DNA of 64,000 bases, taken from Eledone cirrhosa. Its lineage: Eukaryota. The stretch spans positions 16,182,001-16,246,000 of the forward strand of contig OZ024756.1 of NCBI GenBank assembly GCA_964016885.1, written 5' to 3'. Positions 10,427 through 44,608 of the stretch are shown here, piece after piece (position 1 is the first letter of the stretch; the number at the start of each line of letters is the position of its first letter). The notes beneath the pieces were generated by a model. The model was given only the letters and a program-made list of their open reading frames with translations. It made no database searches and had not been told where the DNA came from. A program made the translations under genes and the position numbers.

Positions 10427-10539
10427 AAGGAAATGTGGTAAGGAACCAGATGGACCATAACGCACCAAAGTACTCAATACTTAGGGTAGTAGAGTGGGTA
10501 ATAGGGACGAGTAGGTCCCCAGGGGTCCTACTCGTTCCC
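10427..10539 (+). mobile_element. Arm-plus-hairpin element, copy A (short hairpin)
   Basis: Arm tgtggtaaggaaccagatggaccataacgcacc...gagtgggtaatag, then hairpin gggacgagtagg...cctactcgttccc. Confidence 0.75.
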
Positions 10540-10656
10540 ATATATGTATCTATATATATTTATGTATCTATATATATGTATCTATATATATTTATGTATC
10601 TATATATATGTATCTATATATATATATATATATATATATATATACATAATAACTAG

Positions 10657-10990
10657 AAATTGATTAACATATAAATAAACATGAATAATCACAGGAGATA
10701 ATTAATTATATTATAATTAATCATATAAGGTATCTATTTTTGAAGTTCTGGTCAACTTTATCTAGTTACCTACCTTACTATGTGTAGTTACACACTTGTA
10801 ATAATTATCTCCTCTGATTATTCATGTTTATTTATATGTTAATCAATCTCAAGTTATTATAAAATGGTGGGACCTACTCGTTAGAATCTTAGAGCTTATT
10901 TTGCGGGTGATATGGCGCATGTCTTTCTGGCATGACACCCATAATTTTGATTTAGATTAAATTCATTTGATTTATCTTAATTTTGTATAT
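10657..10990. mobile_element. Fold-back repeat, second copy of the 3060-3425 family
   Basis: 10660-10704 is an inverted copy of 10802-10847. Confidence 0.65.
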
Positions 10991-11095
10991 AGATATATAT
11001 ATATGTATCTATATATATATGTATCTATATATATATATACATGTATCTATATATATATATATATATGTATGTATATACATGTATCTATACATATA

Positions 11096-11973
11096 CAGGG
11101 CACGGACGATATTTGTTCGCAAGATTACTGTCTAGGAAAAAATAACACGGTAGTTTTATTTTTTAAGATATATTTATCAAACTTGGGTCAGTTTGTCTTC
11201 ATGACTTGTTCTTTCGATCTCACTAGATAAACCCGCCATTGGCTTTGATGACAGCCTCGCAACTGGCAACAGGCCTTCATCACTCTCCCCTGACTTAGGC
11301 CCCTAAAGGCACTTGTTATCCTGACCTTCAGATCGTCTTTCGTATTGCAGCTAGATCTGTTGGTGTCTCGTTCCACTGTGCCCCACACAAAGATGTCGAG
11401 GGTGTTGCAGTCAGGCGAGCTGGGAGGCCATATGTCAGGTGAAGTGTGGTCAACGAAGTTCTCTGACAGCCAGGCTTGGGTCTTTCAGCTGGTATGGCAG
11501 GGCGCTGAGTCTTGCTGCCACACGTATGGCCTACCTGCAGCTACCTGGTCGATCCAGAGCTTTACTACCTCGCTCAGAATGCGGATGTAGCCATCAGTGT
11601 TCAGCTTGAAGCTCTCAGGGAAGAAGTGAGGTGGCATGACATCACCTTGACTGCTGACGACACCTAAGACCAATGTTTTCGCTGAAAACTTTGTCTGCAT
11701 GACTCTGGGCACATCTTTGGATGACACAGCGAGCCACCTGTTGTTCTGAGAGTTGATCTTCTGGTCTTATTTGTCCTCCCGGCGCAGATTCCAAGAACTC
11801 TGTGTCTCTCCCACAAATTTGGAGGTTCAAAATTATTCATAATCAATTATTCTGAAAATAAATAATGGAAATATAGTCACTGTTTTTATGAAGACAAGAG
11901 TGACAACGGAAGCAAAAAAAATTTGCATAAAATTAGCAGTTGAAAACTGCGAACAAATATCGTCCACACCCGG
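11096..11973 (-). mobile_element. Tc1/mariner DD37D (maT-type) transposon, internally deleted
   Basis: About 26-bp TIRs (..ggacgatatttgttcgca), TA flanks, WQQDSAPCH...WPPSSPDCNTLD with 37 codons between the catalytic Ds; in-frame TGA. Confidence 0.9.
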
Positions 11974-12204
11974 TATATGTATATATATGTATCTATACAT
12001 ATTTGTGTATATGTGTATGTATGTGTATATGTATATGTGTGTATATATATACATATGTGTGTATGTATGTATGTGTATATGTATATGTGTGTATATATAT
12101 ACATATGTGTGTATGTATGTATATATATATATATATATGTGTCACTACAGCACCCTTACGACTCTATCATTGGTTACAGAACCATACATACACACATATA
12201 TATA

Positions 12205-12845
12205 TATCATCATCACCGTTTTACATTCATTTTCCCCACGCTAGCATGGGCTAGACGAGTTGCCTTGTTGATCATGTCAACCTCATTTACCATGTGGACT
12301 GGGTGCTTTTTGTCATGACACCCATATGACCACCGTACAGCGTGGGCTGGAGGCTCCACAAGATGTATACTTCAGCCCGTCCTCATGGGAGGGTGGGGTG
12401 GTTTGTGGCACATACTGTATATCTACTTCAGCTGCAGCCTGTGTTCCTGGGAGGTCTGGTCTTCTGTACTACTATGTAATGCCAGATATCTCGGTCCTGT
12501 GTCATTGCCTATGAGAGGGTGAGGTCAGCTTTTATCACCTCATCCCAACTCTTCCTGGGTCTCTCCACTCCAAGGCTTCCATCAACTTTGAGTGCGCTGC
12601 ATTTTTTTTATGTAGCTGTCAATCTTCATACGCATCATATGTCCATACTAATGCAATCTCCTCTCCTGCACACTGCATCCCGTTCCTCTTATGCCTAGTT
12701 TCTCTCTCAGTTGATTTATGCTTTGCCATACATGTATATATTACTATTACACATCCATCAGAACAGCTTCATTTCTTTCTAATCTACTCAAGTCTTCTGC
12801 ACACTGCACCCGGATCTCACTACATTGCTGTTCGTATGCACACAT
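12205..12845 (-). mobile_element. Degenerate RTE LINE 3' fragment
   Basis: CAEDLSRLERNEA motif, UTR motifs and catcatc tail. Confidence 0.75.
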
Positions 12846-13039
12846 CATATATATATATATGCACGCATCATATATATATGTGTGTGTGTGTATATATACT
12901 CTTTTACCTAGTTCAGCCATCCGGCTGAGGCCATGTTGGAGCACTGCCCTATAGTGAGCCTCATGGTTGACCATTGATATATATGTATATATATATATAT
13001 ATATATATATATATATATATAATAATAAAAATAATAATA

Positions 13040-41412: not shown

Positions 41413-41760
41413 TATATGTACTAATATATATCTGTGTATATACATGCATAAATATATATGTATATACACGTGTATAAATCAATATGTGTATATAACAGCT
41501 ATTGGCAAACTGAGTAATTAATCTTGAAAAATGTAGAGTAAGCTCCCTTTGACTATTAGTAATTTTATTTGAAAATAATGTAAAAAATATCGAACAAAAT
41601 CGATTAAAATTCAATGAAATAAAGAAAAACAAAAGCACTGTGAGATAGATAGATAGAGAGAGAGAGAGAGAGAGAGAGTTTATTTCAGTCAATAATTATT
41701 TCCTATGTATTCAGGATTTCGTGTAATTGCCGGTCAACAAACAAACAAACCTCCTTTTAA

Positions 41761-41983
41761 CTCCTTAGCATTTAAATCGGCCAGATCCGGCCAGATTTCT
41801 CTCAACTCTTTCTGTTCAAACTGGCTGTAACTCTGGCTACTCATACTGATGTTAAGGTATTGTTCTCAAAATAAATAACATCAAAATCTCATAGATTTGA
41901 TATTATGTGAGATAATTATGTGAGGCAAAGCCTCTACCGTGAATATATAATGGTAAATATAGAGTAATGTGAATGTTAAAGGG
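41761..41983 (-). mobile_element. piggyBac-like MITE, single-unit diverged copy
   Basis: TTAA on both sides; reverse complement of the 24808 family. Confidence 0.8.
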
Positions 41984-43131
41984 TTAATATAGTATAAGAT
42001 CTTCAGACACACACATACACACATATATAGTGCTAGTGACTACAAAAGTGACTACATTTTATTGTGACACCATCACTACCACCATTTTCCAGAGTGTATT
42101 GGCTGCATTTTCTCATGTTACCAACAACACTGCTACTTTACAGCATGTACTGGATACATTTTATCTTAGCACCAACACAACCACTTTCCTGAGTGTACTA
42201 GATGCATTTTATTGTGGCACTAGCAACACTGCATTACAGAGTTCATTGGGTGCATTTTGTAGCACCAACACAAGAGGACAACCTGAGATGCAGACCCAGG
42301 CTTATCTGAGAGGTAGGGACTCTGATAAAGTACTAGGTGTGATCTGTTCAACACTTGTTAGCAGGGAATATGGACTTTAAATGATGATGATGATGATGAT
42401 AAGGATACACATACAGACTTGTGTATATATATATGTATGTGTGTGTATATATATATATATATATATATATATATATATATATATACATATGTATATATAT
42501 ATATATATATATATATATATACATATGTATAAAAAATATACATGTATGTAGCTATGTATACATATATATAGGTATGTGTACATATATGTACATAATTGTA
42601 CATATATATATATATATATATATATATGCACATAATTGTGCATGTATATATATATTTACATATATGTAGGTATGTATACATATATGCACATAATTGTACC
42701 TGTATATATATATGTATATATATATATATATATATATTTACATATATGTAGGTATGTATACATATATGCACATAATTGTACCTCTATATATATTTATATA
42801 TATATATATATATATATATACACAAATACAGAGACAGACAAACATAGTTTATATTTTTTAGCATATATACATATTCAAATGTATTCAAATTATCGTTGCT
42901 GTGGTAATATTGTAGCTGTGTATGTGTGTGTGTATGTGTGTGTGTGTGTGTGCAAGCAAACAAAAATTAAATAATAATAAAAAAATCGATAAAAGACATT
43001 CTATATATTGAAATTAACCAACATGTTTTTGCAACAGGACAATTAGAATTTCATTTAAATATATTAATTCTAAACAATCCCATGTATATATATATATATA
43101 TATATATATATACATGTAGATACATATATAT

Positions 43132-43470
43132 ATCATCATCATTTCATCATTTCATTTTACGTCCGCTTTTTCCCTGCTCGCAAGGGTGGGACGGGAACTG
43201 ATTCTGGCTTGATTTCTACAGCTGGATGCCCTTCCTAACACCAACCTCATTTACAGTGAGTGCTGGGTGCTTTTTTTCTGTGGCACCTCCATGACCACTT
43301 TGCAGTGGAATGATAGGGACCCCACTCCCTATCATCTAATTTCTACAGCAGAGTAAACTGGAGCAATGTGAAATAAAGTGTCTTGCTCAAGGAAACAACA
43401 CATCACCCGGTCTGAGAATTGAACTCACAACCTTTTGATTGCAAGGCCAATGCTCTAACCACTAAGCCAT
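43132..43470 (-). mobile_element. SINE family B
   Basis: Consensus match; followed by a short inverted copy of its own tail (43471-43508). Confidence 0.85.
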
Positions 43471-43941
43471 GGGAAAAAGCGGACGTAAAATGAAATGATG
43501 ATGATGAATGATATACATATATATATATATAAAGATATACATATATATATATATATATAAAGATATACATATATATATATACATATATATATATATATAT
43601 ATAAAGATATACATATATATATATATATATATATATATAAAGATATACATATATATATATATATATATATATATATAAAGATATATAATATATATATATA
43701 TATATATATATATATAAATATATAAAGATATATATATATATATATATATATATATATAAAGATATATATATATATATATATATATATATATATATATATA
43801 TATATATATAAAGATATATATATATATATATATATATATATAAAGATATATATATATATATATATATATATATAAAGATATATATATATATATATATATA
43901 AAGATATATATATATATATATATATATATATATAAAGATAT

Positions 43942-44255
43942 CATCATCATCATCAGGTTTAGCGTCCGTGTTCCACGCTTGCATGGGTTTGGACGGGGGT
44001 TTTCCCACTTGAGGCAAGAGTGGTTGTCTTGCTCGCATAGGACTGTCTGGCGGGTTTTCTACAGTTGGATGCCCTTCCTAACACCAACCACCTTTACAGT
44101 GTGGGGCTGGGAGGTTTTTACCGTGTTGCCTACACGGCCACATTACAGCGTGGACTGTCTGGCGGGTTTTCTACAGCTGGATGCCCTTCCTAACACCAAC
44201 CACATTTACAGTGTGGGCTGGGAGGTTTTTACCGTGTTGCCTACACGGCCACATT
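43942..44255 (-). mobile_element. RTE 3' UTR fragment with a duplication of about 112 bp
   Basis: Matches 5738-5960; gactgtctggcggg at 44041 and 44153. Confidence 0.85.
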
Positions 44256-44406
44256 TACATATATATATATATATATATATATATATCTTTATATATATAT
44301 ATATATATATATATATATATATATATATCTATCTTTTTATATATATATATATATATATATATATATATATATATATATATATATAAAGATATACATATAT
44401 ATATAC

Positions 44407-44608
44407 AGGAACAAGTAAGACCCCGACGGCTGAGCTCAAGCCGTTTCGACGGCTAATTCTGGACATTGCGTCCAGAATTAGCCGTCGAAATGGCTTGAGC
44501 TCAGCCGTTGGGGTCTTACTTGTTCCTATTACCCACTCTACTACCCTTAAGTATTGAGTACTTTGGTGCGTTATGGTCCACCTGGTTCCTTACCACATTT
44601 CCTTTGTT
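44407..44608 (-). mobile_element. Arm-plus-hairpin element, copy D (121-nt near-perfect hairpin)
   Basis: Hairpin 44407-44527 plus the conserved arm. Confidence 0.85.

Follow-up and report, generated by a model that had tools for sequence, protein, structure and literature searches.

Four hairpins in a 64,000-nt stretch of the Eledone cirrhosa genome (contig OZ024756.1, positions 16,182,001 to 16,246,000; the whole stretch is called the window here and is numbered from its first letter) are almost certainly by-products of a Penelope-like retroelement. We propose that each hairpin, together with its adjoining tail, is a single insertion in which two complementary DNAs (cDNAs), both copied from the sense RNA and primed at two fixed sites (E1 and E2) from both cut DNA ends, were fused head to head. 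We give this reading a probability of about 0.7. Judged by its motifs, the parent is an intact, tandem-forming Penelope-like element of the Hydra clade. It represents a new family of that clade, with an inverted-plus-tail layout that is already published. As a repeat the element is ordinary; the less ordinary part is the mechanistic record kept in the ends of its truncated copies, or stubs.

The window copies and their parent element

The first-pass annotation described copies at 10427, 13991, 36641 and 44407, each with a shared arm and a hairpin in TA repeats. All four are present at these positions with TA runs on both sides, and the arm common to them measures about 80 nt, with pairwise identities of 84-95%. 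The hairpin spans (A, 10504-10539; B, 13994-14071; C, 36713-36816; D, 44408-44526) fold far better than shuffled sequences, with z-scores of -4.4, -17.5, -10.1 and -21.9, respectively. Because the arm is the 3' tail of the parent element, copies A and C lie on the minus strand and copies B and D on the plus strand. Each copy consists of two 5'-truncated ends placed head to head in a TA run, one stopping at E1 and the other 80 nt further on at E2, and the parts are as follows:

10422..10503, minus strand: tail of copy A, the stretch of about 80 nt from fixed end E1 to fixed end E2, with TA at its end; 92% identical to parent L169
10504..10520, minus strand: tail-bearing arm of copy A, whose start coincides exactly with the predicted cleavage site of the hammerhead (GUC, then GGGG)
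10521..10540, plus strand: one-base linker and inverted arm of copy A; the arm also begins at the cleavage site and ends at E1 in TA
13992..14036, minus strand: inverted arm of copy B, with its E1 end in TA, extending to GTC-GAAAC
14037..14073, plus strand: forward arm of copy B, beginning at stem III; an intermediate truncation
14074..14154, plus strand: tail of copy B, to E2 and then TA
36636..36712, minus strand: tail of copy C, of an older, more diverged subfamily; 78% identical to the parent
36713..36766, minus strand: tail-bearing arm of copy C, beginning in the loop-2 start zone
36767..36817, plus strand: inverted arm of copy C, ending at E1 in TA
44407..44464, minus strand: inverted arm of copy D, with an E1 end, beginning one base inside the putative start site (GTCCAG)
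44465..44469, no strand: linker of copy D, five untemplated bases
44470..44527, plus strand: forward arm of copy D, with the 3' strand of stem II, GAAA, stem III with a palindromic loop, the cleavage triplet and the 3' strand of stem I
44528..44610, plus strand: tail of copy D, to E2 and then TA

The distal half of the hairpins had been recognised as half of a hammerhead, and rightly so: it is the 3' half of a type I motif, with GAAAC, stem III, GTC and GGGGTC present in copies B-D. A complete catalytic core in cis is found in none of the four; the core sits 96-102 nt upstream of the tail. By their inner ends, copy A belongs to a cut-site class and copy D to a start-site class, copy B is intermediate, and copy C, of the older subfamily, ends in the start zone. 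A search of the window against Rfam returned no hammerhead among the best 150 matches listed, and copy B matched Rfam mir-5918 below threshold only (43 against 69 bits). Four short-read contig sets compared with copy D confirmed the arm and tail words of the family, and no contig among them spans the copy.

What had been taken for a four-copy family is a high-copy interspersed repeat, since the 3.0-Gb, TA-rich genome contains 35,847 exact matches to a 19-mer from the arm and none to a reversed control; as a count of exact matches, this is a lower bound on the number of family copies. Five of the first 30 arm loci continue into a longer element. A search with the N-terminus of its open reading frame (ORF) gave 9,718 candidates; many of the 150 that were scored lay in open frames of about 784 codons, and all 20 such loci that were fetched contain an ORF of 717 amino acids. 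The parent unit is 3,531 bp long. Two consecutive tandem units show 0 differences, which indicates recent activity of the family, and a four-unit tandem repeats at the same 3,531-bp spacing. The order of parts is hammerhead, E1, 80-nt tail, E2, 92 nt and the ATG. A pseudo-long terminal repeat (pseudo-LTR) precedes the ORF, in the tandem or partial-tandem arrangement of endonuclease-positive Penelope-like elements.

The 717-residue product combines reverse transcriptase (RT) and GIY-YIG features in a single ORF, with YRDD at 348 and a C-terminal VIY..YIG at 591. It also carries the marks of the Hydra clade, namely RWR at 37, DKT at 117, CNCPDRSIC at 572 (CxCx5C), CNLC at 670 and CKH near 700, each of which is shared by 105-111 of 112 aligned homologues. 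A further trait of the Hydra clade is an endonuclease without the CCHH motif; within the VIY..YIG core of the present ORF there is a single cysteine. There are 403 homologues of the ORF; among 20 that were scanned, one gave an RVT_1 match (E 2e-7) and two gave weak GIY-YIG matches, and the Atlas neighbours of the ORF carry GIY-YIG and RVT_1. Both ends lie in TA runs, in the window copies and in most other loci, as expected of the (TA)n insertions of the Hydra clade. The unit is longer than the size given for elements of this clade, which are generally under 3 kb; the source says 'generally', so the limit is not exclusive.

On the strand that reads the arm last, the pseudo-LTR of the parent contains the motif ACCCC-YTGANRA-G-stem II-GAAAC-GGC-palindromic loop-GCC-GTC-GGGGT. 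By this sequence it is a complete type I hammerhead, mostly of the U3-A8 variant, which has been described for Penelope hammerheads (PMC4209133). The first-pass annotation had made its hammerhead reading depend on relatives with a full core; sought genome-wide, these exist, with 3,552 matches to a 21-mer over the core (ACCCC-YTGANRA-G), and so the reading survives. Among 60 full motifs, 39 are U3-A8, 19 are C3-A8, and U3-G8 and A3-A8 occur once each. The stems are 98-99% paired in 40 sequences, and the lowest-energy fold of L169 is a three-way junction.

Outer and inner ends of the stubs

The ends were read in 100 copies, the first in genome order to match the tail on the largest contig. An inverted arm was called at a local score of at least 30 within 60 nt. 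An adjacent inverted arm is present in 72 of these 100 copies, which gives them the form of an inverted 5'-truncated copy with a one-sided tail. Fifty-three of the 72 arms stop at one identical base, E1, a further 17 stop within about 12 nt of it, and 2 stop at the tail end. The last bases at E1 and at E2 alike are TAT, and (TA)n follows. When hairpins were parsed from all loci, 66 of 71 paired one E1 end with one E2 end; four of the other five are diverged E1/E2 pairs by eye, and one is E2/E2. Because many of these loci had been picked by their tails, the pairing was recounted on 45 loci selected instead through their inner junction, among which two pairs represent a single insertion each. 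Here 36 were E1/E2, 1 was E2 with an unclear partner and 8 were unparsed (four of them E1/E2 by eye), with 0 E1/E1 and 0 E2/E2. Long insertions obey the same E1/E2 rule.

An observation that touches both RT starts is that a similar motif, CTC-TAC..GTA-NN-GAG-YACTTT, lies 7-9 nt after each of them (L169:4280-4325 and 4360-4405, plus strand). The motif may be a signal for protein binding. Its hairpin fold is seen in the E2 copy alone, and neither copy gives a significant fold (z -0.6 and -1.7).

The inner ends are distinct from one insertion to the next, in 31 of the 32 junctions that could be parsed (68 of the 100 copies did not parse). The two arms of 66 hairpins differ at 114 of 3,167 positions, 42 of these differences being CpG-type transitions; read on the sense RNA, the mismatches comprise 44 G-U and 30 A-C (p=0.13). 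Because the junctions are nearly all unique and the mismatches lack a significant strand bias, we suggest that the hairpins are remade at each insertion and then decay roughly neutrally; a small G-U excess may be present. It had been argued that outer stems differing between copies yet pairing within each are covariation. As a sign of RNA function this is not supported, since the arms carry duplicated subfamily variants and not compensatory changes: an identical 11-nt subfamily word occurs on both arms in 41 of 71 hairpins, where chance would give 10%, and such a result is expected if the word is duplicated at insertion. A few hairpins (e.g., L076, L098 and L069) fuse two subfamily variants, a hint that two RNA templates rather than one were used.

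The inner ends fall into two clusters. The first lies 31-50 nt upstream of the predicted cut site and takes in 57 of the 100 forward arms and 53 of the 72 inverted ones, and the core is reached in 8 of 100 copies only. It had been proposed that template switching overwrote the catalytic strand. However, the stops of copies without an inverted arm fall in this zone as well, as do those of both arms of the hairpins, and the longer arm may be either one (18 versus 15 of 72, the remaining 39 being similar); the core was therefore likely never reverse-transcribed rather than overwritten.

The centre of this zone is the A of an initiator-like motif, TTAGT/TCAGT; this A lies within loop 2 of the hammerhead, 59 nt before the tail begins. 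In all 64 long copies this A is preceded by T or C, and never by G (0 cases). A purine stands before AGTCCAG at 6,310 places in the genome, and among the 100 matches listed 87 have G and 13 have A. At the next base inward, G accounts for 16 of the 100 listed of 7,365 matches (Fisher p 2e-25 against the start-site G). Junctions with G on both arms number 368 and those with A on both arms 8. An initiator-like TCACT has been described in the pseudo-LTR of another Penelope-like element (PMC3846280), a transcription start inside a pseudo-LTR has been reported (PMC2377424), and untemplated 5' G in L1 has been read as cap read-through (PMC9341517). We hypothesize that the loop-2 cluster marks a capped transcription start which gives rise to the untemplated G, and consider this probable. 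In L017, L020, L075 and L120, runs of 12-17 T stand directly before the putative start, perhaps through slippage or untemplated addition of A at the cDNA end.

The second cluster lies at the predicted cleavage site, 18 nt upstream of the tail. A pattern allowing up to 14 nt between the arms found 376 very short hairpins, and the 50 listed of these were classed by hand. Both arms end exactly at the GUC/GGGG boundary, with an untemplated, mostly A/T linker, in 21 of the 50, and in a further 11 the arms meet bluntly at the cut site; in the rest, one arm is a base short (6), an arm is longer by at least 3 templated bases (9) or the reading is ambiguous (3). Single arms show the same preference. 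An A or T directly before the cut site occurs in 1,658 arms, with true stops in 19 of 30 inspected, and the same search two bases upstream finds 823 arms, with true stops in 8 of 30. This corresponds to an estimated 1,050 or so true stops at the cut site against about 220 two bases upstream, or about five-fold. One subfamily has a mismatched core, C3-A8 in 19 of 23 of its long copies, and its share falls from 21 of 43 copies in genome order to 12 of 50 among the short hairpins (p=0.017). This pattern of sequence ends makes it likely that the Penelope hammerhead cleaves in vivo.

Proposed mechanism and its rivals

In the mechanism that we propose, the GIY-YIG domain would cut both strands within (TA)n, and the RT starts, both ending in TAT, could pair with the target. 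Each cut DNA end would prime one cDNA on the sense RNA, one at E1 and the other 80 nt downstream at E2. Where RT started at the upstream copy of E1 and E2, the resulting short cDNAs would run off the nearby 5' end of the RNA. That end would be either a capped start within loop 2 of the hammerhead, 59 nt before the tail and giving an extra G, or the 5' end left by the ribozyme cut, 18 nt before the tail and giving none. The two cDNAs would then be fused by end joining, accompanied by trimming, microhomology and small insertions. On this view the hairpin would be a by-product, and it would lack the catalytic 5' half because the RNA starts downstream of that half, so that no overwriting is needed. 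In vitro, a Penelope protein is described as cutting and extending both strands from two internal starts (PMC11167929).

A stronger form of this proposal, to which we give even odds, is that the stubs record the whole insertion, that is, a two-headed complex that always uses one E1 and one E2, with cDNAs running off both the capped start and the ribozyme cut. If it is true, the capped start would lie inside the hammerhead's own loop 2, and the mRNA would begin with half a ribozyme. The stubs would also be population-scale evidence of in vivo cleavage by a Penelope hammerhead, with the products used as templates.

Several observations weigh against the proposal or its parts. The ORF itself has no match in Pfam or the PDB. 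The hammerhead shows 0 two-sided compensatory changes in 40 sequences, because these are 93% identical; position 3-8 is unpaired in 12 of the 40, the fold of the full motif is no better than that of shuffles (z -0.4), and the full parent motif has no match in Rfam. At the putative start, a templated T or C precedes AGTCCAG in 21,641 arms, far above the 3,552 matches with the core, and the stops spread over about 20 nt; either the start itself is therefore heterogeneous or stalling at a structure plays a part. Of 26 G's that were inspected, about half could derive from the other arm. In most full-length copies among those listed, the upstream pseudo-LTR extends far beyond the putative start, which requires read-through or template jumps. 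Stops at the cut site are a minority (12 of 100 within -4 to +5, and 9 of 133 arms within 1 nt), and a run of G's ends at the same place. In the anole study, the text consulted reports that no reads ended at the ribozyme cut site (PMC11167929). The evidence for RNA ends is all genomic and indirect.

A Penelope origin is also assumed in the proposal, published for a rotifer Penelope from its palindromic junctions (PMC3846280), that the inverted arm arises by self-priming, a fold-back on one cDNA or on an antisense template. In its favour, the two arms usually have their subfamily word in common (41 of 71 hairpins), and some linkers are short templated fold-backs. However, we think this origin unlikely here, as the longer arm can be either one, the tail is on one arm only, a few hairpins combine two subfamily variants, and the extra G appears on both arms independently, at the same sense-strand site and with unrelated linkers. 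Somewhat less probable still is that twin cDNAs were made but that their inner ends are places where the enzyme stalled at RNA structure (the loop-2 hairpin or the end of the G run) and not RNA 5' ends. The spread of the stops, the small loop-2 hairpin just upstream of the stop zone, and the many arms that run a few T's beyond the A all fit stalling; yet stalling would not lead one to expect an untemplated G confined to a single position, nor exact stops at the scissile bond with A/T linkers together with a deficit of the mismatched core.

The least probable of the three, and one to which we give very little weight, is that the hairpin with its tail is a non-autonomous element in its own right, propagated from a small number of master hairpins and perhaps retained for its double-stranded RNA, the direction taken in the first-pass annotation. 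It draws on the large excess of short hairpins over long copies (8 of 100 reach the core), on the slight excess of sense-strand G-U over A-C mismatches, and on the small RNAs that rotifer Penelope copies yield (PMC3846280). Copying from masters is at odds with the unique junctions in 31 of 32 parsed cases, with mismatches of which 42 of 114 are CpG-type transitions and whose strand bias has p=0.13, and with stubs that lack an inverted arm and yet share the same stop sites. We prefer twin sense-templated cDNAs; of the first-pass reading, the hammerhead identification holds, and the model of conversion and double-stranded RNA does not.

Other classes of element were rejected. A miniature inverted-repeat transposable element (MITE) or other DNA transposon is ruled out by a tail at one end only and by a parent that is an RT element, and a Helitron end was likewise discarded. 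The copies are not non-LTR retrozymes, being inverted pairs of half motifs and not direct tandem repeats of complete hammerheads. Fixed ends, diverged arms and short-read support for the family rule out an assembly artefact.

Neighbouring elements and known systems

The window holds further elements of related form. At 15038-15721 a 684-bp near-perfect palindrome (98.5%) bears a canonical CTGATGA hammerhead on each arm and is another head-to-head Penelope-type insertion. A second hammerhead-bearing family adjoins copy C at 36841-37300, as an inverted pair whose left arm ends in TA and whose right arm carries a tail. For stubs of this second family (L051, L210, L253 and L292), the apparent stop is a CACTATCC motif, about 75 nt before their hammerhead core and possibly the start site of that family; the G's there are ambiguous. 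A broken Penelope ORF at 46646-49967 (minus strand), 37-39% identical to the parent protein, has inverted hammerhead-bearing ends at 48477-48656 and 49787-49967. Further palindromes lie at 50025-50259, 3281-3410, 10649-10857 and 26364-26760, and single CTGANGA..GAAA hammerhead-like motifs of other families at about 17516 (plus), 17755 (minus), 56547 (minus) and 60535 (minus). There is a tRNA-Lys(TTT)-like gene at 27008-27101 (minus strand) with a 20-nt insertion in its anticodon loop. By their motifs, 21160-23678, 54469-55256 and 6800-7570 are fragments of an RTE-like long interspersed element, with endonuclease and RT pieces. Minisatellite arrays at 24722-25922, 40253-41341 and 52388-54273 yield long repetitive open frames.

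The first-pass annotation did not recognise the hairpins as a described family. Their layout, an inverted copy with a one-sided tail, is known for Penelope-like elements (PMC8557442, PMC3846280; see also PMC4209133). The closest likeness is to the Hydra clade, including Hydra-1_Obim (Craig et al. 2021, PMC8557442), with which the parent shares RW[K/R], DKT, the CxCx5C linker, CxxC, and CxH around the endonuclease E and N. It also shares a C-terminal GIY-YIG, (TA)n targets, a hammerhead in the pseudo-LTR, an inverted 5'-truncated copy and a one-sided tail. The unit, in contrast, is 3.53 kb long where the families listed in that source measure 1.1-3.0 kb, the tail is 80 nt where theirs is 30-40, and very short stubs dominate. 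Relative to the Hydra hammerheads listed there, ours has a U3-A8/C3-A8 core, a loop 2 of 35-40 nt and a stem III of 3 bp or more with a palindromic loop. Because the hammerhead sequence given for Hydra-1_Obim differs, the present family is distinct from it. Within the octopus repeat annotation as consulted, active Penelope families are listed and this structure was not found. Our literature search, which for most papers covered listings, found no report of cap-marked or cut-site Penelope stubs, subscription papers (e.g., Arkhipova 2006, Lunse 2017) lying outside its coverage.

The Poseidon element PAc (Frangieh et al. 2024, PMC11167929) is alike in having two internal RT starts whose spacing equals the tail, in the cutting and extension of both target strands, and in its AT-rich target. 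Its ribozyme, however, is described as dispensable in vitro, with no reads at the cut site, whereas in the present family stub ends accumulate both at the cut site and at a putative capped start; the strict E1/E2 pairing seen here is also something of which the consulted text gives no description. Penelope hammerheads in general (Cervera and de la Pena 2014, PMC4209133) resemble ours as type I motifs in a pseudo-LTR with a long helix II, a short helix I, U3-A8 and a palindromic loop 3, and as motif pairs on opposite strands 100-700 bp apart. The descriptor used there is of full motifs and does not cover half-motif stubs, and the same paper states that there is no in vivo evidence of cleavage. 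In Adineta vaga (Arkhipova et al. 2013, PMC3846280), Penelope copies likewise show head-to-head inverted pseudo-LTRs, a tail on one side, palindromic junctions and an initiator-like pseudo-LTR motif; self-priming on an antisense template was invoked there, whereas our counts favour two sense-templated cDNAs.

L1 twin priming and its cap-derived 5' G (PMC11702581, PMC9341517) offer a parallel in the second RT from the other DNA end, the untemplated G and microhomology end joining. However, the two L1 cDNAs copy adjacent, non-overlapping parts of the RNA, and here the same stretch is copied from two fixed starts. Animal non-LTR retrozymes (bioRxiv 10.64898/2026.07.22.740005) are also non-coding, hammerhead-related and Penelope-derived, but are described as direct tandem arrays of complete ribozymes, unlike the inverted stubs without a core that we find. 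Such stubs mimic microRNA hairpins, MITEs or covarying RNAs, a warning for annotation. The family is best seen against these systems as a test bed, both for the origin of the inverted repeat with its tail, given as open in PMC8557442 and PMC3846280, and for in vivo cutting by Penelope hammerheads, open according to PMC4209133 and PMC11167929. It offers base-exact predictions (a start site, a cut site and two RT starts), thousands of natural replicates and intact ORFs, with the mismatched-core subfamily as an internal control.

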